Shown: piece after piece, positions 16,614-62,500 of the stretch
How positions within the stretch are numbered: position 1 is the first letter of the stretch
Layout: the number at the start of each line of letters is the position of its first letter
Assembly: GCF_041886205.1 (NCBI RefSeq)
Contig: NZ_CP169029.1
Length of the DNA: 64,000 bases
Reading direction: 5' to 3' (one strand)
Source: Escherichia coli
GTDB taxonomy: Bacteria > Pseudomonadota > Gammaproteobacteria > Enterobacterales > Enterobacteriaceae
Position numbers and translations under genes: made by a program
The notes under the pieces: model-generated
Databases searched by the model: none
Told to the model about the DNA's origin: nothing
What the model saw: only the letters and a program-made list of their open reading frames with translations

Positions 16614-19600
16614 TTACCCAACCGCTGGTGTCGGATCGTCGCCTTTGTAGTCGCGTTTTACTTCCGTCACCTCATCGCCCTTCTCGTTGTGCAGATGCAC
16701 TTCAAGCTGGTTAAAGGCAATGTTGATGTCGTTTTCACGGCACAGCTGATCGATAGTACGGTTCAGCTCATCGACAGTACGACTACGGTCACGCAGTTCA
16801 CGCACATACAGACGCAGCTCATGATCCAACGTGCTGGCACCAAACGCCGTAAAGAAGACTTCCGGCATTGGTTCGTGCATCACTCTTGGGTGCTCAGTCG
16901 CCGCCTTCAGTAACACTTTACGCACTTTTTCCAGATCGGAGCCATAGGCCACGCCGAGACGGATCACCAGACGCGTAGTAGTGTCAGTCAACGACCAGTT
17001 GATCAGACGCTCGGTAACAAACGCTTTGTTCGGGATGATCACTTCTTTGCGATCGAAATCGGTAATCGTTGTCGCACGAATACGGATCTTACTTACCGTC
17101 CCCGAGAAGCTACCAATGGTTACCGTATCGCCAATACGCACCGGACGTTCGAATAGAATGATCAAACCGGAGACGAAGTTACCGAAAATTTCTTGTAAAC
17201 CAAAACCAAGACCTACGGATAATGCTGCGGCCAGCCACTGGAGTTTATCCCAAGAGACGCCCAGCGATCCGAACACCGTCATCGCACCAACAGCAATAAT
17301 GATGTAGTTAAGGATGGTAGTAATGGCATACGACGCGCCCTGGCGCATATTCAGTCGCGAGAGCACCAGCACTTCCAGTAAACCAGGCAGGTTGCGAATC
17401 AACGCCCAGGCCACCATTGAGGCGATAATCGCAAACAACAGACTGCCCATGGTGACGTTTTTCACCACCGCAGCGCCAGCTTCAGTGCCGTTGTAATGCC
17501 AGAGCGTGATGCTGTCGAGATAGCTGAACACGGTGATCAAATCGGACCAAATTGCCCAGAACATGACACCGAACAGCGCAAACATCAGCAACATGGTAAT
17601 ACGCAGCGTCTGCTGGTTAACTTGCTCCAGTGCAATGGTGGGTTCTTCCGGCGGTTCAGCACCTTCTGCGCCCTCTTTCACCAGATTCTGCCGACGCGCC
17701 AGCGCACGACGCCAGGCGATACGCCGCGCCGCTACGCTTAAGCCACGCAGTACCGTCTGGTACAGCAGGTTCCAGATGATCACCAGATAAACGGTTTCAA
17801 TCCAGCGTCCTGCCAGACGCAGCGTAGTGTAGAAGTAGCCTGTAGCAGTCAGCACCATCAGCGCAATCGGGATTATCGACAGCACGGTAATGGTGACCAG
17901 TCGCATGGTGTGCGACTCTTTATCACGCCAGCTTTCGCGGCACATCGGCCATACCAGGAAGGCAATCAGCAGCAGGTTGAAGAAAATCATCGCTTGCCCC
18001 AGCACATCATCCATCAGATGCAGCGGGGAAAGTTCTGCCACCACAGACCAGAAATGGATAGGCAGCAATGCGAGACTGATGCGGACAATTTGCCGACGCC
18101 AGTGGCTGGTCTGCTGTTCCGGCATGCCGAAGTGACGTACGGCAACGCCGTTTTTCTCCAGTACCTTCCAGCACAGGCCAAACACCAGCCAGAATATCGC
18201 CAGTTTTTTGCTGAACGACCATAGCAGTTCGCTGATGTTGAGCTGCATGGTCAACAGAATCAGGCCAACCGCGAGAATAATCAGGCACACCGGCAGCGCA
18301 CGGATCAGGTCGATAAGGATCGCTTTTGGTGTGTTGAGCTGGCTGTCGTTACGCAGGGAACCCACAGCGGAAGCCAGTTTTTGTTGATACGCTTTCAGCC
18401 AGCCCAGACGCCAGTGGATCAGCCCGGCAATCAACAGCAGCGGCAAACCAGCGAGGAAAGCGATAAAAACGGCGGGCCAGGCTTTTTGCCAGTTCACCGT
18501 GATTTTCATCGACTTAAATTCATCTTTCAGGCTTTGCGGGAACGCTTTGATCCAGTCCCAGTCCATTGGACGGTTACTGTTCACCCAAAAGATTTGCTGA
18601 GTCAGGATGGATTTCAGGTTTTTCGACACACTCATTAACTGCTGCTGGTTGATTTGCAGGTTAATGGCCATCATCAGCTGGTTACCCAACTGTTTGTTGA
18701 GTTGATCCAGCAATTCGCGACGCATATCAACCACTTGCAATAACGCATCGTGAACTTCGCTGTTGACTTCGTTGGTGTGACCTTCTTCCAGTTTGTTGAC
18801 GAACGCATCGCTCTGGAAGAGTGCATCACGCTGCTGGTTAACTTCAAACTGTTCGAGACGCAAATCCGCGATGCGGTTGGTCATGTTTTCCAGTTCATCC
18901 GCCGAGGGCAGCGTTTGTTGTTGCTGGTAAAGGATACGAGACAACAGCAGGCTGCCCTTCAGGACGGCAATCTGCTCTTTAATATTGCGTTCCGATTGCA
19001 GCGCCCGCTCCAGCCAGTTTTTGACTTTAATGTTTTGCTGCATCAACTGATTACCGTTTTCAGTCGCGGTAATCAGACGCTGACTTAACTGCTGGTTAAT
19101 TTCCAGTTCCTGCTTCACCAGCGGATTAGCCTGAATACGCGCGGCTTCATCCGGGGAGACGGCTTCCTGCGCCGTTTTTTCGGTTAAAGTCAGGCGCTTG
19201 CTGTTTACCGCTTCTTGCAACAGTTGTAACTGGTGCTCCAGACGAGCGCTGTTCGCCGTCACGTAATCACGTTGCTTTTGCAAGGTATCCTGCAAGACGG
19301 TGTTCCCTTCCAGGCTTTTACGCTGCTGGTCAATCTCCGCATTCAGCAACGCCTGCTGGGCCTGCATTAACACTTTCTGGCTGGGACGTAAGGCTGTCTC
19401 GCCGACATCAGTCCCATCCAGACGACTGCGAATTTGTTGCAGCTGCTGCGAAGCGTTATACATCGCATTTTGCACGCGTTCGGGCTGCGTCTGTAACGAA
19501 ACCAGCTGGCTGTTATAAGACGCCAGATCGTTTTGTGCGTTTTGCAAATCGTCCAGCGCCTGGGCAACGCGAGTTTCCAGCTGGCGCAACGAAAGCGTGC

Positions 19601-19976
19601 TCAGAATTTTGCGCGTTTCTTCGTCGTTATCGACATCGCTAAGTGCTGTTAACGCCGCGGTCGCCTGGCGCATTTTTTCCGGCGCTTCAGCGACTTTTTG
19701 CCGTAGCTGAACTGTCTCTTCTTTTATGCGATCGATTTTATCGAGGGTGGCTAATGTATCTGTCAGATCCTGCTGCACCAGTTTGTCCTGAGCAGAAAGA
19801 TCTTTTTGTTTATTTAGTGAGTCAAGTTGCGCCTGCAGGTCCGCTTTTGTCGGCAGATCACCATTCGATGACGCCCGCGCAAACGCCGTGTTCTGGCATA
19901 ACAAGACAAAAACAAAAGCAATAAATGCTGAAAAAACAAAATGCCGTGATCGTTTGTAATACTGGAACATAGTCAT
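16614..19976 (-). CDS. mscK: potassium-dependent mechanosensitive channel MscK (KefA)
   Basis: 1120-aa ORF with signal peptide, long coiled-coil periplasmic region and C-terminal MscS-like domain. Confidence 0.95.
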   Translation of the reverse strand: MTMFQYYKRSRHFVFSAFIAFVFVLLCQNTAFARASSNGDLPTKADLQAQLDSLNKQKDLSAQDKLVQQDLTDTLATLDKIDRIKEETVQLRQKVAEAPEKMRQATAALTALSDVDNDEETRKILSTLSLRQLETRVAQALDDLQNAQNDLASYNSQLVSLQTQPERVQNAMYNASQQLQQIRSRLDGTDVGETALRPSQKVLMQAQQALLNAEIDQQRKSLEGNTVLQDTLQKQRDYVTANSARLEHQLQLLQEAVNSKRLTLTEKTAQEAVSPDEAARIQANPLVKQELEINQQLSQRLITATENGNQLMQQNIKVKNWLERALQSERNIKEQIAVLKGSLLLSRILYQQQQTLPSADELENMTNRIADLRLEQFEVNQQRDALFQSDAFVNKLEEGHTNEVNSEVHDALLQVVDMRRELLDQLNKQLGNQLMMAINLQINQQQLMSVSKNLKSILTQQIFWVNSNRPMDWDWIKAFPQSLKDEFKSMKITVNWQKAWPAVFIAFLAGLPLLLIAGLIHWRLGWLKAYQQKLASAVGSLRNDSQLNTPKAILIDLIRALPVCLIILAVGLILLTMQLNISELLWSFSKKLAIFWLVFGLCWKVLEKNGVAVRHFGMPEQQTSHWRRQIVRISLALLPIHFWSVVAELSPLHLMDDVLGQAMIFFNLLLIAFLVWPMCRESWRDKESHTMRLVTITVLSIIPIALMVLTATGYFYTTLRLAGRWIETVYLVIIWNLLYQTVLRGLSVAARRIAWRRALARRQNLVKEGAEGAEPPEEPTIALEQVNQQTLRITMLLMFALFGVMFWAIWSDLITVFSYLDSITLWHYNGTEAGAAVVKNVTMGSLLFAIIASMVAWALIRNLPGLLEVLVLSRLNMRQGASYAITTILNYIIIAVGAMTVFGSLGVSWDKLQWLAAALSVGLGFGLQEIFGNFVSGLIILFERPVRIGDTVTIGSFSGTVSKIRIRATTITDFDRKEVIIPNKAFVTERLINWSLTDTTTRLVIRLGVAYGSDLEKVRKVLLKAATEHPRVMHEPMPEVFFTAFGASTLDHELRLYVRELRDRSRTVDELNRTIDQLCRENDINIAFNQLEVHLHNEKGDEVTEVKRDYKGDDPTPAVG

Positions 19977-20103
19977 GATGAATGAAGGTTTCTGAACCTG
20001 AAGAACGACCTGAAAAAGTCAAACCGCAAGAATATCACGACGCAGTGAACCAGAATAGCAACGACGAAAATGTCCAGGAAAAATCCTGGAGTCAGATTCA
20101 GGG

Positions 20104-20751
20104 TTATTCGTTAGTGGCAGGATTACGAAGCGTGGGGCACAGGAGATACATCTCCAGTAAGATGGCAACGTAATCGCGGGCTTCTTTTTTAAGATCAAAA
20201 GATTGCGGGGCAAAGAGCCAGTTTTCCATCAGGCCGGAAATATAGCCGCGCATAATAATTGCTGCGCGACGCGTCATTAAATCCGCAGGCAACATTTTCG
20301 CTTCAATACAATGTTTTAACGTTTGTTCTATACGGTCATAACTTTCCAGACAGAGATTACGTTGTGCCTGTTGCACAACAGCCATTTCTCCGACAAATTC
20401 GCATTTGTGGAATATAATCTCCATCAATAATCGACGCCGTTCTTCTGTCACCGTGGATTCAAGAACATGAATTAATATCTCTCTTAATACTGAGAGTGGA
20501 TCGCCAGGGAATTTTGCCTGATACTCAAGCTCTAGTTCACCAATATTGGATTCTGACAGTTCCCAGATCTCACTGAACAAATCCGACTTGTCTTTAAAAT
20601 GCCAGTAGATTGCACCGCGCGTAACGCCAGCTGCTTTTGCAATCTCGCCCAGCGAGGTGGATGATACCCCCTGCTGTGAGAAAAGACGTAGAGCCACATC
20701 GAGGATGTGTTGGCGCGTTTCTTGCGCTTCTTGTTTGGTTTTTCGTGCCAT
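20104..20751 (-). CDS. acrR: TetR-family repressor of acrAB
   Basis: 215-aa ORF with N-terminal TetR HTH; divergent from acrA. Confidence 0.95.
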
Positions 20752-20779
20752 ATGTTCGTGAATTTACAGGCGTTAGATT

Positions 20780-20803
20780 TACATACATTTGTGAATGTAT
20801 GTA
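20780..20803. promoter_or_regulatory. AcrR operator, 24-bp palindrome TACATACATTTGTGAATGTATGTA
   Basis: Perfect 10-bp inverted arms around a 4-bp centre in the acrR/acrA divergent promoter region; matches the known AcrR binding site. Confidence 0.8.
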
Positions 20804-20892
20804 CCATAGCACGACGATAATATAAACGCAGCAATGGGTTTATTAACTTTTGACCATTGACCAATTTGAAATCGGACACTCGAGGTTTACAT

Positions 20893-22086
20893 ATGAACAA
20901 AAACAGAGGGTTTACGCCTCTGGCGGTCGTTCTGATGCTCTCAGGCAGCTTAGCCCTAACAGGATGTGACGACAAACAGGCCCAACAAGGTGGCCAGCAG
21001 ATGCCCGCCGTTGGCGTAGTAACAGTCAAAACTGAACCTCTGCAGATCACAACCGAGCTTCCGGGTCGCACCAGTGCCTACCGGATCGCAGAAGTTCGTC
21101 CTCAAGTTAGCGGGATTATCCTGAAGCGTAATTTCAAAGAAGGTAGCGACATCGAAGCAGGTGTCTCTCTCTATCAGATTGATCCTGCGACCTATCAGGC
21201 GACATACGACAGTGCGAAAGGTGATCTGGCGAAAGCCCAGGCTGCAGCCAATATCGCGCAATTGACGGTGAATCGTTATCAGAAACTGCTCGGTACTCAG
21301 TACATCAGTAAGCAAGAGTACGATCAGGCTCTGGCTGATGCGCAACAGGCGAATGCTGCGGTAACTGCGGCGAAAGCTGCCGTTGAAACTGCGCGGATCA
21401 ATCTGGCTTACACCAAAGTCACCTCTCCGATTAGCGGTCGCATTGGTAAGTCGAACGTGACGGAAGGCGCATTGGTACAGAACGGTCAGGCGACTGCGCT
21501 GGCAACCGTGCAGCAACTTGATCCGATCTACGTTGATGTGACCCAGTCCAGCAACGACTTCCTGCGCCTGAAACAGGAACTGGCGAATGGCACGCTGAAA
21601 CAAGAGAACGGCAAAGCCAAAGTGTCACTGATCACCAGTGACGGCATTAAGTTCCCGCAGGACGGTACGCTGGAATTCTCTGACGTTACCGTTGATCAGA
21701 CCACTGGGTCTATCACCCTACGCGCTATCTTCCCGAACCCGGATCACACTCTGCTGCCGGGTATGTTCGTGCGCGCACGTCTGGAAGAAGGGCTTAATCC
21801 AAACGCTATTTTAGTCCCGCAACAGGGCGTAACCCGTACGCCGCGTGGCGATGCCACCGTACTGGTAGTTGGCGCGGATGACAAAGTGGAAACCCGTCCG
21901 ATCGTTGCAAGCCAGGCTATTGGCGATAAGTGGCTGGTGACAGAAGGTCTGAAAGCAGGCGATCGCGTAGTAATAAGTGGGCTGCAGAAAGTGCGTCCTG
22001 GTGTCCAGGTAAAAGCACAAGAAGTTACCGCTGATAATAACCAGCAAGCCGCAAGCGGTGCTCAGCCTGAACAGTCCAAGTCTTAA
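20893..22086 (+). CDS. acrA: multidrug efflux periplasmic adaptor (membrane fusion lipoprotein) AcrA
   Basis: 397-aa from MNKNRGFTPLAVVLMLSGSLALTGC (lipobox); ORF-track start at 20857 is over-extended. Confidence 0.95.
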   Translation: MNKNRGFTPLAVVLMLSGSLALTGCDDKQAQQGGQQMPAVGVVTVKTEPLQITTELPGRTSAYRIAEVRPQVSGIILKRNFKEGSDIEAGVSLYQIDPATYQATYDSAKGDLAKAQAAANIAQLTVNRYQKLLGTQYISKQEYDQALADAQQANAAVTAAKAAVETARINLAYTKVTSPISGRIGKSNVTEGALVQNGQATALATVQQLDPIYVDVTQSSNDFLRLKQELANGTLKQENGKAKVSLITSDGIKFPQDGTLEFSDVTVDQTTGSITLRAIFPNPDHTLLPGMFVRARLEEGLNPNAILVPQQGVTRTPRGDATVLVVGADDKVETRPIVASQAIGDKWLVTEGLKAGDRVVISGLQKVRPGVQVKAQEVTADNNQQAASGAQPEQSKS

Positions 22087-22105
22087 CTTAAACAGGAGCC
22101 GTTAA

Positions 22106-25258
<3,153 letters not shown>

Positions 25259-25277
25259 TACAACGTGTAATCACTAA

Positions 25278-25299
25278 GGCCGCGTAAGCGGCCTTTTTT
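25278..25299 (+). terminator. rho-independent terminator of acrB (GGCCGC-GTAA-GCGGCC + T6)
   Basis: 6-bp GC stem, 4-nt loop and TTTTTT tract 20 nt after the acrB stop. Confidence 0.7.
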
Positions 25300-25423
25300 A
25301 TGCATAACCTACGAACATTAAGGAGTAATTGAACCACCAACTCAGGATCTCATACGAAAACCAGTATTAACCTCGCATAAAATTCATAAAAAATACTGAT
25401 TGTTAGTTAATTTATATTAAGTA

Positions 25424-25432
25424 GCGCTAATA
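25424..25432. repeat. IS1 target-site duplication, left copy (GCGCTAATA)
   Basis: 9 bp immediately outside the IS1 end, identical to 26201-26209. Confidence 0.9.
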
Positions 25433-25447
25433 GGTAATGACTCCAAC

Positions 25448-25951
25448 TTATTGATAGTGTTTTATGTTCAGATAATGCCCGATGACTTTGTCATGCAGCT
25501 CCACCGATTTTGAGAACGACAGCGACTTCCGTCCCAGCCGTGCCAGGTGCTGTCTCAGATTCAGGTTATGCCGCTCAATTCGCTGCGTATATCGCTTGCT
25601 GATTACGTGCAGCTTTCCCTTCAGGCGGGATTCATACAGCGGCCAGCCATCCGTCATCCATATCACCACGTCAAAGGGTGACAGCAGGCTCATAAGACGC
25701 CCCAGCGTCGCCATAGTGCGTTCACCGAATACGTGCGCAACAACCGTCTTCCGGAGCCTGTCATACGCGTAAAACAGCCAGCGCTGGCGCGATTTAGCCC
25801 CGACATAGCCCCACTGTTCGTCCATTTCCGCGCAGACGATGACGTCACTGCCCGGCTGTATGCGCGAGGTTACCGACTGCGGCCTGAGTTTTTTAAATGG
25901 CGGAAAATCGTGTTGAGGCCAACGCCCATAATGCGGGCGGTTGCCCGGCAT
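25448..25951 (-). CDS. insB: IS1 InsB' reading frame (expressed as InsAB' transposase by -1 frameshift at A6C motif)
   Basis: 167-aa frame recognised as IS1 InsB; slippery A AAA AAC motif on the minus strand at about 25887-25896 (plus-strand gttttttaaa). Confidence 0.88.
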
Positions 25952-26145
25952 CCAACGCCATTCATGGCCATATCAATGATTTTCTGGTGCGTACCGGGTT
26001 GAGAAGCGGTGTAAGTGAACTGCAGTTGCCATGTTTTACGGCAGTGAGAGCAGAGATAGCGCTGATGTCCGGCGGTGCTTTTGCCGTTACGCACCACCCC
26101 GTCAGTAGCTGAACAGGAGGGACAGCTGATAGAAACAGAAGCCAC
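25870..26145 (-). CDS. insA: IS1 InsA (transposition inhibitor / N-terminal part of InsAB' transposase)
   Basis: 91-aa [23 protein letters not shown]... zinc-finger/HTH protein, recognised as IS1 InsA. Confidence 0.92.
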
Positions 26146-26200
26146 TGGAGCACCTCAAAAACACCATCATACACTAAATCAGTAAGTTGGCAGCATCACC

Positions 26201-26209
26201 GCGCTAATA
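26201..26209. repeat. IS1 target-site duplication, right copy (GCGCTAATA)
   Basis: 9 bp immediately outside the IS1 end, identical to 25424-25432. Confidence 0.9.
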
Positions 26210-26580
26210 GATTTAATAATCCATAATCATTTAGAGGCTATTCTTAATTATTTGCGGTAATTCTTTATTCATTCCTCGGTTATTACGTCATATTCAGAGC
26301 AATCCTGGTATTAGTGTCACCAATGTCATCTGGCGATAATCCTGAAATGTTATGAACTGTTCGAGCAAACTGCTTTTACCTACTGCGGGTTGGTGCTAGT
26401 ATGAAAAAGTGAGTCCTGTCCTGCTTCCTTCCTAATTGTAATTTTTCGTAATAATGCGATGAAAACCTGCAAAGAGTGGCTTATAGTTAAGCTAACAAAC
26501 GAGAGGGCAAGTCTAGGTCAGTAAGTTTTTTCCATCCCGAAAGGTGTCCGTTAGTTCAACCACTAAGAAGGGGACGCGTT

Positions 26581-26955
26581 ATGGATGAATACTCACCCAA
26601 AAGACATGATATCGCACAGCTTAAGTTTCTCTGTGAAACCCTGTATCATGACTGCCTTGCAAACCTTGAAGAAAGCAATCATGGCTGGGTAAACGACCCA
26701 ACCTCGGCGATCAACCTCCAGTTGAATGAACTGATTGAGCATATTGCGACCTTCGCACTTAATTACAAAATTAAGTATAATGAAGACAATAAGCTCATTG
26801 AGCAGATCGACGAATATCTGGATGACACCTTTATGTTGTTCAGTAGTTATGGTATTAATATGCAGGATCTTCAGAAATGGCGGAAGTCAGGTAATCGACT
26901 ATTCCGTTGTTTTGTCAATGCGACGAAAGAGAATCCTGCGAGTTTATCTTGTTAG
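26581..26955 (+). CDS. tomB: Hha toxicity modulator TomB (YbaJ)
   Basis: 124-aa ORF recognised as TomB; directly upstream of hha. Confidence 0.93.
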
Positions 26956-26980
26956 AATTATTACAACCATGGGTAGAAGT

Positions 26981-27199
26981 ATGTCCGAAAAACCTTTAAC
27001 GAAAACCGATTATTTAATGCGTTTACGTCGTTGCCAGACAATTGACACGCTGGAGCGTGTTATCGAGAAAAATAAATACGAATTATCAGATAATGAACTG
27101 GCGGTATTTTACTCAGCCGCAGATCACCGCCTCGCCGAATTGACCATGAATAAACTGTACGACAAGATCCCTTCCTCAGTATGGAAATTTATTCGCTAA
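26981..27199 (+). CDS. hha: haemolysin expression-modulating protein Hha (H-NS co-regulator)
   Basis: 72-aa [35 protein letters not shown]...; the ORF-track frame 26735-27199 is over-extended upstream. Confidence 0.93.
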
Positions 27200-27370: not shown

Positions 27371-27958
27371 ATGAGCACAGAAAAAGAAAAGATGATTGCT
27401 GGTGAGTTGTATCGCTCGGCAGATGAGGCGTTATCTCGCGATCGCCTGCGCGCTCGTCAGCTTATTCACCGATACAATCATTCCCTGGCGGAAGAGCACA
27501 CATTACGCCAGCAAATTCTCGCTGATCTATTCGGTCAGGTGACAGAGGCTTATATTGAGCCAACGTTTCGCTGTGACTATGGCTATAACATCTTTCTCGG
27601 CAATAATTTTTTCGCCAACTTCGATTGCGTGATGCTTGATGTCTGCCCTATTCGCATCGGTGATAACTGTATGCTGGCACCAGGCGTTCATATCTACACG
27701 GCAACACATCCCATCGACCCTGTAGCACGTAATAGCGGTGCTGAACTGGGGAAACCCTTCACCATCGGTAATAACGTCTGGATTGGCGGACGCGCGGTCA
27801 TTAACCCTGGTGTGACCATTGGTGATAACGTCGTGGTAGCCTCAGGTGCAGTTGTCACAAAAGATGTCCCGGACAACGTTGTCGTGGGCGGTAATCCAGC
27901 CAGAATAATTAAAAAATTGCAATCGGTTTTTCGCAACTGTTATGCAAAATTGTGGTAA
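27371..27958 (+). CDS. maa: maltose O-acetyltransferase (left-handed beta-helix acyltransferase)
   Basis: Recognised as Maa; ORF here is 195 aa, 12 codons beyond the 183-aa K-12 length as I recall it (sense codon CAA at 27920-27922 where a stop is expected). Confidence 0.9.
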
Positions 27959-46058: not shown

Positions 46059-48413
46059 CTATTTTGCAGTCACAACCTGCATGCCAGACGGTTCATTTTG
46101 CAGCGCCAGAGTCAGAACTTCCTCAATGCGCTTCACAGGATGAATGTCCAGATCGGCAATTACGTTGTCAGGAATCTCTTCCAGATCGCGTTTATTTTCG
46201 AACGGAATTAACACTGTTTTAATCCCGCCGCGATGCGCTGCCAGGAGTTTTTCTTTCAAACCACCGATCGGCAGTACCTGACCACGCAGAGTGATCTCAC
46301 CGGTCATTGCCACATCGGCACGAACCGGGTTACCGGTCAGGCAAGAAACCAGCGCGGTGCACATAGCAATACCGGCACTCGGACCATCTTTCGGCGTCGC
46401 ACCTTCCGGTACGTGGACGTGGATGTCGCGTTTTTCGTAAAAATCAGGGTTGATCCCCAGTTTTTCCGCACGCGCACGAACCACCGTTAACGCCGCCTGA
46501 ATGGACTCCTGCATCACTTCGCCGAGCGAACCGGTATAGGTCAGTTTGCCTTTACCCGGAACACATGCGGTTTCAATGGTCAGCAAGTCACCGCCCACTT
46601 CCGTCCACGCCAGACCGGTTACCTGACCGACACGGTTTTCGTTATCCGCGCGACCATAGTCGAAACGCTGAACACCGAGATAGTCATGCAGGTTATCGCC
46701 GTTAATTTCGATATGTTTTAATGACTTATCGAGCAGTAACTGCTTAACCGCTTTGCGACACAGTTTGGAGATTTCACGCTCCAGACCACGCACGCCCGCC
46801 TCACGGGTGTAGTAACGAATAATGCCGATAATGGCGCTATCGTCGACGGTCAGCTCACCTTTTTTCAGTGCATTACGTTCAATCTGCTTCGGCAGCAGGT
46901 GACGTTTGGCGATGTTCAGTTTTTCATCTTCGGTATAACCGGAGAGGCGAATCACTTCCATACGATCCAGCAGCGGTGCCGGAATGTTCATGGAGTTCGA
47001 CGTCGCGACAAACATCACGTCGCTGAGATCGTAATCCACTTCCAGGTAGTGGTCGCTGAACGCTACGTTCTGCTCTGGATCCAGCACTTCAAGCAGTGCG
47101 GAGGCCGGATCGCCACGCATGTCAGAAGACATTTTGTCGATCTCATCGAGCAGGAACAGCGGATTTTTCACGCCCACTTTCGCCATTTTCTGGATCAGTT
47201 TACCCGGCATAGAACCGATGTAAGTACGGCGGTGACCACGGATTTCCGCTTCATCACGCACGCCGCCCAGCGCCATACGGACATATTTACGCCCGGTGGC
47301 TTTGGCAATAGACTGACCAAGAGAGGTTTTACCTACCCCCGGCGGCCCTACCAGGCAGAGGATCGGTCCCTTGATTTTGTTGACACGGCTTTGAACCGCA
47401 AGGTACTCAAGGATTCGATCTTTCACGCGCTCCAGACCATAATGGTCGGTATCAAGGATTTCCTGCGCCTGACGCAGGTCTTTTTTGACCTTGCTACGCG
47501 CATTCCACGGCACCTGTACCATCCAGTCGATATAACCACGCACTACGGTCGCTTCTGCCGACATCGGAGACATCATTTTCAGCTTCTGCAACTCTGCTTC
47601 CGCTTTCTCTTTTGCCTCTTTCGGCATCTTCGCCGCGTCGATTTTGCGCTTCAGGGCTTCGTTTTCGTCCGGCGCGTCGTCCATTTCACCGAGTTCTTTC
47701 TGAATAGCTTTCATTTGCTCGTTCAGATAGTACTCACGCTGGGATTTCTCCATCTGCTTTTTAACGCGGTTGCGAATGCGTTTCTCAACCTGCAGCAGAT
47801 CGATTTCCGATTCCATCATTGCCATCAGATATTCCAGACGTTCGTTAACGTCGGACATCTCCAGAACGGACTGTTTGTCAGCCAGTTTCAGCGGCATATG
47901 TGCAGCAATGGTATCCGCCAGACGCGCCGGATCGTCGATGCTATTCAACGACGTCAGCACTTCTGGTGGGATTTTTTTGTTCAGCTTGATGTAGCCTTCG
48001 AACTGGCTGATTGCAGTACGCACCAGCACTTCCTGTTCCCGCTCATCAATGGTCGGCGACTCCAGATACTCCGCCTTCGCAGAAAAGTGTTCGCCATTGT
48101 CAGAGAGCGCAGAAATACGCGCGCGCTGTAACCCCTCGACCAGCACTTTGACGGTGCCGTCAGGCAGTTTCAGCATCTGCAATATAGAGGCCACGGTCCC
48201 GACGGTGAAAAGATCGTTTACACCCGGCTCATCCGTTGAAGCTTCTTTCTGCGCGACCAGCATAATTTTTTTATCATGGTCCATCGCCGCTTCCAGACAA
48301 CGGATAGATTTTTCCCGCCCGACAAATAAGGGGATGACCATGTGCGGATAAACCACCACATCGCGCAGCGGCAATACGGGGATTTCAATGCGTTCAGAAC
48401 GCTCAGGATTCAT
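46059..48413 (-). CDS. lon: ATP-dependent Lon protease
   Basis: 784-aa from [18 protein letters not shown]; Walker [10 protein letters not shown], catalytic Ser in PKDGPSAG; ORF-track start at 48458 is over-extended. Confidence 0.96.
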
Positions 48414-60671: not shown

Positions 60672-60983
60672 ATGCCTGGAAAAACAGCCACTCTACCCGA
60701 TGTCGATAAAACGCTGAAAAATGCGCGGGTCGAACTCAAAACTAGTCCCGACGCCAAAAACAAACTTCGTGAAGCTGCGCAAGCCGTTGGGGTAGATTTA
60801 AGCGCTTTTATTTTGAGCGCTGCTATGGAACGCGCCGAAAGTGTGCTTGATAACCAACGTCGCCGTGAGCTTTCGAATCAAAGCTGGGAACTGATGAACC
60901 AACTCATCGCTGAACCTGCTCAACCGACGCTCGCCCTCAAGGCGTTAATGAAAAGGAAAAACAGCGATGGTCGACAAGCATGA
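60672..60983 (+). CDS. ribbon-helix-helix (DUF1778-like) antitoxin of a GNAT-type toxin-antitoxin pair
   Basis: 103-aa from MPGKTATLPDVDK, RBS AAAGAGG 6-7 nt upstream; RHH-like N-terminus (RVELKTSPDAKNKLREAAQAVGVDLSAFILSAAMERAESVL) resembling TacA/AtaR/KacA-type antitoxins; overlaps the toxin gene by 17 nt. Confidence 0.8.
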   Translation: MPGKTATLPDVDKTLKNARVELKTSPDAKNKLREAAQAVGVDLSAFILSAAMERAESVLDNQRRRELSNQSWELMNQLIAEPAQPTLALKALMKRKNSDGRQA

Positions 60984-61509
60984 AGAGATTACTCTGCCCA
61001 TAGTCCTCTCCTGTAATTATCAGTCTGATATTACTTATCCTGGGCAAAAACAGTTTGATTGCGGTAACCCTGTTATCGATAAATTTGTACGCGCATCGCT
61101 AAAGAAAAGTGTGCGTAATAGCGACTGTGCGGCTAAAGCACTTATTGACAGACAAAGTGGTGAACTGATCGGCATCTGTACTTTTACGGCATATTCGCTG
61201 GAAAAACAACGCGTTTCTGGCGTCCTTCAGGGTTCACAACCTTCAGAAATTGGTGTTGTCAGATTAGTCATGTTGGGGGTAGCACGGAAGTATCAAAAGC
61301 GGGGCTTTGGTCAGGACCTACTATGTGATTTTTTTGAACATGTAAAAATAATTCACCAGGCATTACCAATTAAAGGGGTTTATCTTGATGCTGACCCTGC
61401 CGCCATTAATTTTTATGCTCGTCTCGGCTTTGTTCAGCTTTCAGCGACACCAAATGCTTTTGGTGCTGTACCTATGTTTTTGGCGATTCAGCATATTCTC
61501 GCGGCTTAG
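60967..61509 (+). CDS. GNAT-family acetyltransferase toxin (TacT/AtaT/ItaT/KacT-like, probable aminoacyl-tRNA acetyltransferase)
   Basis: 180-aa ORF with acetyl-CoA-binding motif A (VRLVMLGVARKYQKRGFG), motif B (AINFYARLGF) and N-terminal FDCGNPVIDKFV typical of GNAT toxins; immediately downstream of and overlapping an RHH antitoxin. Confidence 0.85.
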   Translation: MVDKHEEITLPIVLSCNYQSDITYPGQKQFDCGNPVIDKFVRASLKKSVRNSDCAAKALIDRQSGELIGICTFTAYSLEKQRVSGVLQGSQPSEIGVVRLVMLGVARKYQKRGFGQDLLCDFFEHVKIIHQALPIKGVYLDADPAAINFYARLGFVQLSATPNAFGAVPMFLAIQHILAA

Positions 61510-61564
61510 ATTATTATCGCCACCCGCCAGGGCAAGTTTTGCCTCAGCCGGGGGCTGAGCAGCG

Positions 61565-62500
61565 TTACCACTTTTGTTCAATTGCCCCCGCTTTCAGCAA
61601 CTCCACATCCTTGCCGTTAATGGTTGCCGTTGCGGCAACGATTGTGGTCCTTACAGTTGCACAAGATTTTCGCTCAAATTCCGGTTTATAAAGAATAAGA
61701 GACGAATTACTGGTAAATGAACCAAATAGGTAATCAGTAAAGCTAATATTCAGCCGGTTTAAACCGAAAGGCGCGAAGCCAACCGTTTGGTTAATCTCCT
61801 TACCGGATGGGCGACGAATGCTGAATGTCACGCGAAGGTTGGCCACTTCGCCTAATTTATTGGTGGTGGCGAAGAGGCTATCCATGCAGGAAAAACCTTC
61901 ATCTAAAAAATTATCCCGCATCCCAGAACGGGTAACCGTGATCACGGGTAACGTATCGTCAACCGTTTTTCTGTCAATCATGTCTTTTCGACAAGTAGCC
62001 AGAAAGTCTTCCGGGCCACCATAAATGTGGACACCTTTATCAAGATATTCCTTCGCTTTCTTACAATCTACCTCAACATACTGACCATTGGCGTACATCA
62101 TGCCCAACCTGGACCATGCTAAATTCACACCGTATTGCGCGGCCTGATTAAATAGCGCATACGCTTTGGCATAATCCACCCGCACCTGCTCGCCGTCGTA
62201 GTAGATACTCCCCAGCGCTAACGGTGCTTCTCTGTCACCGTGTTTAGCGGCTAACTCGAACCATTTAATCGCTTCCTGAACATCAGGTTTGGTATCATAG
62301 CGAGGCTGATAATATTCCCAGCCTAACAGGCTCTGCGCGTCGGCACCCCCCGATTCAGCCATTTTATGCAGTGTATTTATAACATTGGGCGCAGGTTTAC
62401 CACCGTATATGCTGTCATACAATTCATGTGCTTTCTCGCTTGCCACCACGCCTGGTGAAACTATTAGCATTAAAGAAAATAGTATTCTTTTAGTTAACAT
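61565..62500 (-). CDS. secreted Sel1-like repeat (TPR-like) protein with uncharacterised C-terminal domain of about 150 aa
   Basis: 311-aa from MLTKRILFSLMLIVSPGVVASE (Sec signal peptide, AAAGG RBS upstream); about three Sel1-like repeats (e.g. AIKWFELAAKHGDREAPLALGSIYYDG, YAKAYALFNQAAQYGVNLAWSRLGMMYANGQ); C-terminal half not recognised; the ORF-track start at 62560 is probably over-extended. Confidence 0.8.
   Translation of the reverse strand: MLTKRILFSLMLIVSPGVVASEKAHELYDSIYGGKPAPNVINTLHKMAESGGADAQSLLGWEYYQPRYDTKPDVQEAIKWFELAAKHGDREAPLALGSIYYDGEQVRVDYAKAYALFNQAAQYGVNLAWSRLGMMYANGQYVEVDCKKAKEYLDKGVHIYGGPEDFLATCRKDMIDRKTVDDTLPVITVTRSGMRDNFLDEGFSCMDSLFATTNKLGEVANLRVTFSIRRPSGKEINQTVGFAPFGLNRLNISFTDYLFGSFTSNSSLILYKPEFERKSCATVRTTIVAATATINGKDVELLKAGAIEQKW

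Follow-up and report, generated by a model that had tools for sequence, protein, structure and literature searches.

The acrR-acrAB divergent control region of an Escherichia coli genome and the IS1 element downstream of acrB

Does the acrR-acrAB locus of this Escherichia coli strain carry a lesion in the repressor gene or its operator, of the kind described from resistant isolates, or is its local control that of the wild type? We addressed this question in a 64-kb stretch of E. coli DNA (64,000 nucleotides, hereafter the window), for which the original prediction had proposed a repressor of wild-type length, an intact operator and no sign of a loss-of-function change in either. We conclude with high confidence that this is the acrR-acrAB divergent control region of E. 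coli in its canonical, unmutated form, and nothing in the window sequence contradicts this reading. It is built on nucleotide and protein identity, domain content, the published operator string and the position of a nearby IS1 element; promoter positions and levels of repression we infer. The control region is in this sense already known biology, and it gives no local sign of efflux-based resistance.

The repressor gene and the divergent spacer

The locus contains the following features.

20104-20751, minus strand: acrR, coding for the TetR-family local repressor of acrAB (215 aa), assigned from its open reading frame and translation
20732-20751, minus strand: MarA/SoxS/Rob-type activator box ATGGCACGAAAAACCAAACA, read from the sequence as its reverse complement and located within acrR, at the first 20 nt of its coding sequence
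20752-20892, no strand: acrR-acrA divergent spacer, 141 bp, identical to K-12
20780-20803, no strand: AcrR operator, 24 bp, TACATACATT-TGTG-AATGTATGTA, an exact match to the published string
20778-20807, plus strand: predicted acrAB sigma-70 promoter (TTTACA, 18-nt spacer, TACCAT), from a consensus scan only
20819-20846, minus strand: putative acrR promoter (TTAATA, 16-nt spacer, TATATT), from a consensus scan only
20893-22086, plus strand: acrA, periplasmic adaptor, 397 aa, without nucleotide differences from K-12, named after the K-12 annotation
22109-25258, plus strand: acrB, RND pump subunit, 1049 aa, intact

Translation of the acrR open reading frame gave the full 215 amino acids with no internal stop, as had been claimed. 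Pfam places an N-terminal TetR-type helix-turn-helix DNA-binding domain at residues 16-62 (PF00440, TetR_N; 70.2 bits, with the cutoff at 24). Residues 84-202 form a C-terminal domain for ligand binding, of the AcrR/MAATS type (PF08361, TetR_C_2; 179.8 bits, with the cutoff at 22). The E. coli AcrR structures in the PDB (2QOP/3BCG) match the protein over residues 1-215 with 471.7 bits. The gene occupies the minus strand and its target, acrA-acrB, the plus strand, and the two diverge from a gap of 141 bp.

The prediction had left open whether point substitutions known to inactivate AcrR might be present, and had proposed an alignment of acrR and the intergenic region to K-12. On base-by-base comparison with K-12 MG1655, acrR showed no nucleotide and no amino acid differences. 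The identity extends over window positions 19594-23064 (K-12 MG1655, NZ_CP032667.1), which take in acrR, the spacer and acrA without a single nucleotide difference; when 5,426 complete E. coli genomes were searched with positions 20104-20895, K-12 MG1655 and C600 were among the many that matched at 100% identity. The locus therefore carries neither a substitution in AcrR nor a frameshift, an insertion or an altered operator, whether described before or not, and the claim that repressor and operator are free of lesions is borne out. With respect to the K-12 locus, the nucleotide sequence of acrR, spacer and acrA, the operator, the activator box and the divergent layout are all the same; what differs lies further on, namely 16 base changes and one substitution (A794S) in acrB and an IS1 element that is absent from K-12.

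Since acrR occupies positions up to 20751 and the ATG of acrA is at 20893, positions 20752-20892 are exactly the 141-bp spacer. The operator 24-mer within it, TACATACATTTGTGAATGTATGTA, was found once in the 64-kb window, even with three mismatches allowed, and none of 100 dinucleotide-preserving shuffles gave a match, so that none is expected by chance. An inverted-repeat scan returned its two arms (20780-20789 and 20794-20803) as 10 nt each, 100% complementary and separated by 4 nt. The operator had been called a perfect palindrome. This description holds for the arms, which form a perfect inverted repeat; it does not hold for the central TGTG, which is not self-complementary, and the 24-mer therefore differs from its own reverse complement. 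Exactly this string is given as the site at which AcrR binds the acrAB promoter by two studies that used this promoter as a positive control in gel-shift assays and that credit the operator to an earlier study (PMC9769551, PMC10597343). Because the locus is identical to the K-12 locus of these assays, AcrR would be expected to bind the operator and to repress acrAB in this strain as well.

According to the consensus scan, the operator covers the predicted acrAB promoter from the -35 through the -10 hexamer, and this position agrees with the placement of the operator "in the acrAB promoter" in the literature (PMC9769551). Transcription starting at the putative acrR promoter would likewise cross the operator. 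Besides the operator, the spacer contains a second, imperfect inverted repeat, ATAAACGCA / TGGGTTTAT, at 20822-20843 (9 nt, 89% complementary, 4-nt gap), which overlaps the putative acrR promoter and is identical in K-12. To our knowledge no regulator has been assigned to it, and it may be due to chance. A scan of positions 19900-27000 against Rfam, with E-values up to 1, returned no RNA family match, indicating that neither the control region nor the spacer between acrB and tomB contains a known structured RNA.

The activator box fits the asymmetric 20-bp marbox/soxbox pattern AYNGCACNNWNNRYYAAAYN upstream of acrA and is identical to that of K-12. As it lies inside acrR, the functional control region reaches 20 nt past the spacer. 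E. coli is not known to carry ramA, and here the box would serve MarA, SoxS and Rob. In Salmonella Typhimurium the same 20-mer, ATGGCACGAAAAACCAAACA, stands at the same distance upstream of acrA, -161 to -142 from the ATG, where it was mapped as a soxbox-like RamA-binding site (PMC2527123). By analogy, activators may be expected to bind the E. coli box.

Taken together, these elements point to a simple scheme of local control. AcrR would bind the 24-bp inverted repeat at 20780-20803, which overlaps the predicted -35 and -10 hexamers of acrAB and closely follows, on its downstream side, the predicted promoter of acrR. Bound there, the repressor would occlude the acrAB promoter and limit its own synthesis, damping transcription of both acrAB and acrR, and ligand binding to AcrR would relieve the repression. 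The MarA/SoxS/Rob-type box at the first acrR codons would provide a global, stress-inducible input. As neither the repressor gene nor any of the cis elements differs from K-12, local regulation should be that of the wild type.

Lesions in other strains and regulators elsewhere in the genome

We then asked how common an intact region is. Of 5423 complete E. coli genomes, 5419 matched the 164-bp control region at 20732-20895, comprising the spacer and the activator box, with an identity of 99% or more, and of 30 genomes taken at regular intervals along the ranking, 28 matched it at 100%. The weakest of these sampled matches belongs to a genome in which an IS481-family element has entered next to the operator. 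With acrR as query, genomes in which the gene is split by IS1 occur among the matches listed, and 40 of 5423 records had no single place covering 80% of the query. As the intact region is near-universal in E. coli, finding it intact carries little information; it is the departures from this near-invariant region that are the informative events.

Several kinds of departure have been documented. Insertions of IS1, IS5 and IS3-IS629 in acrR have been described (PMC11753663, PMC3514110, PMC3662882), a Klebsiella isolate overproducing AcrAB carries a T-to-C change in the first operator half-site (bioRxiv 10.1101/138248), and acrR loss is frequent across 60,472 E. coli genomes (PMC10401003). These lesions of resistant isolates fall in the same locus and, in the Klebsiella case, in the same half-site, TACATACATT; neither an insertion in acrR, nor loss of the gene, nor the half-site change is seen in the window. 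An example of the kind of control-region lesion that the window lacks was encountered in strain Z1323CEC0008 (NZ_CP148461.1), a chicken isolate in which the acrR-acrA spacer has taken up an IS481-family transposase. The match of this strain starts at query position 42, corresponding to window position 20773, immediately adjoining the AcrR operator.

The conclusion that acrAB is not derepressed is strictly local, as marR, soxR, rob and acrS/envR all lie outside the window. It could thus be true of the locus and yet misleading on phenotype, if AcrAB were overexpressed anyway through lesions in trans-acting regulators (marR, soxR, rob) elsewhere in the genome. Lesions in marR, soxR and lon have been reported to raise AcrAB independently of acrR (PMC3662882, PMC11753663, PMC10401003). 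The sole such locus that can be judged here is the following.

46059-48413, minus strand: lon, 784 aa, the only distant AcrAB modulator in the window

Lon protease degrades MarA, and lon lesions are among the changes in antibiotic-selected E. coli mutants with decreased tigecycline susceptibility (PMC11753663). In the window, the 784-aa Lon protein and the 187-bp clpX-lon spacer show no differences from K-12; the lon region is colinear with K-12, with no insertion and no insertion element in the promoter region. Lon, together with its promoter region, is thus wild type. Bear faeces and a human sample are the sources of the nearest relatives, and no information retrieved on these has a bearing on resistance. 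With no positive evidence in its favour, we consider a trans-acting lesion unlikely. Because there is no local lesion and no lon lesion, any efflux-mediated resistance of this strain would have to originate in regulators outside the window. For resistance calling from genotypes, the negative result is of use: acrR, the operator, the activator box and lon are all free of lesions.

The IS1 element downstream of acrB

The features on the 3' side of acrB are listed below.

25276-25295, plus strand: terminator-like hairpin 3' of acrB, 8-pair stem with 6 G-C pairs, followed by TTTTAT
25424-25432 and 26201-26209: IS1 target duplications GCGCTAATA, a 9-bp direct repeat
25433-26200, minus strand (insA/insB): IS1, 768 bp
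26581-27199, plus strand: tomB-hha, the next transcription unit, with both proteins identical to K-12

The element has the features expected of IS1, namely a length of about 768 bp, inverted repeats at its ends (GGTAATGACTCC... and ...GGCAGCATCACC), a 9-bp target duplication, and the insA and insB frames. Annotated IS1 copies of other genomes match it at 96-99.6% identity. In both K-12 and strain wlxctx60 the site is unoccupied, and GCGCTAATA occurs there once. IS1 starts 175 bp past the acrB stop (25258) and 138 bp past the terminator-like hairpin, that is, beyond both, and the earlier statement that it does not interrupt acrAB is correct. In the proposed scheme the element is a separate insertion placed after the acrB terminator. 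It sits in the region upstream of tomB-hha, ending 380 bp before the tomB ATG (371 bp when counted from the end of the duplication); a literature search for a mapped tomB-hha promoter found none.

Could IS1 alter acrAB expression from this position, either by minus-strand antisense transcription into the 3' end of acrB or by changing the stability of the mRNA 3' end? Its transposase genes do point toward acrB, and only 138 bp separate it from the hairpin. However, the element leaves both the coding sequence of acrB and the terminator-like hairpin intact, and the insertion is in an A+T-rich spacer (37.6% G+C), the kind of DNA that IS1 prefers as a target. We regard such an effect as very improbable.

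IS1 insertions at the acrB-tomB-hha locus were found in 11 other genomes, i.e. in at least 11 of 5426 complete E. coli genomes, a lower bound given that the search detects one IS1 orientation only. Seven genomes, the window included, carry a 768-bp IS1 with 9-bp duplications between +168 and about +199 after the acrB stop. The duplications in this interval are distinct: +168 (LHM10-1, CP52E), +171 (TUM1857), +174 (the window), about +187 (Nord58, B19695) and about +199 (AVS0968). Further copies of IS1 lie at about +389, within tomB (+723 and +753), at +980 in the tomB-hha gap and at +1060 within hha. The insertions at this locus in other E. coli genomes are likewise 768-bp elements with 9-bp duplications, and the window differs from them in its duplication: GCGCTAATA at +174 is shared with none of the 11 other genomes, so that the IS1 of the window represents a separate insertion event. 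In complete genomes, IS1 has thus entered a stretch of about 30 bp independently at least five times.

The simplest explanation of these insertions, which recur in unrelated genomes, is the preference of IS1 for A+T-rich DNA. Hha is a partner of H-NS in gene silencing, and one could suppose that the recurrence reflects selection for altered TomB-Hha expression and not only the A+T preference; we think this improbable. In all 11 other genomes the element has the same orientation as in the window. We do not take this as a finding, since the search joins pieces on one strand only and copies in the opposite orientation go uncounted.

AcrB, the closest genome and other loci in the window

The acrB gene differs from that of K-12 at 16 nucleotides, has no internal stop and encodes one amino acid change, A794S (T at position 24488, G in K-12; codon 794). 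This is the sole amino acid difference from K-12 across acrR, acrA and acrB, and it is common to strain wlxctx60, which has no mismatches across acrB. That the substitution, and not regulation, changes efflux in this lineage is hardly credible: the change stands out as the only one in the three proteins, but it is conservative, it is found in wlxctx60 too, no link to resistance was found, and residue 794 would, going by the domain boundaries of AcrB, lie outside the drug-binding pockets. A794S is probably a neutral lineage marker.

Strain wlxctx60 (NZ_AP045833.1) is the closest genome. It is colinear with the window, and IS1 is the only structural difference between the two; there are no mismatches in the left 25,433 bases and five in the right 37,800 bases. 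These are the only single-base differences across the shared approximately 63.2 kb, which corresponds to the window minus IS1 and its duplicated 9-mer. Their coordinates place one each in glnK (34609), decR (38851) and yajR (62965), and two in the cyoA-ampG spacer (55280 and 55536).

Two further loci in the window depart from K-12. The maltose O-acetyltransferase gene maa (27371-27958) encodes 195 aa, as compared with a K-12 protein of 183 aa; reading continues past the position of the K-12 stop and adds 12 C-terminal residues, and the protein carries the substitutions T20A and V129F. Its length in the wlxctx60 annotation is the same as in the window. Between cyoE and yajR, at about 60672-62500, lies an accessory island with genes for a tetratricopeptide-repeat protein, a GNAT-family acetyltransferase and a DUF1778/TacA-type antitoxin; the latter two genes look like a TacAT-like toxin-antitoxin pair. 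The island is absent from K-12, in which the cyoE end alone matches. A query spanning it gave matches at 80% coverage or more in 1367 of 5426 genomes.
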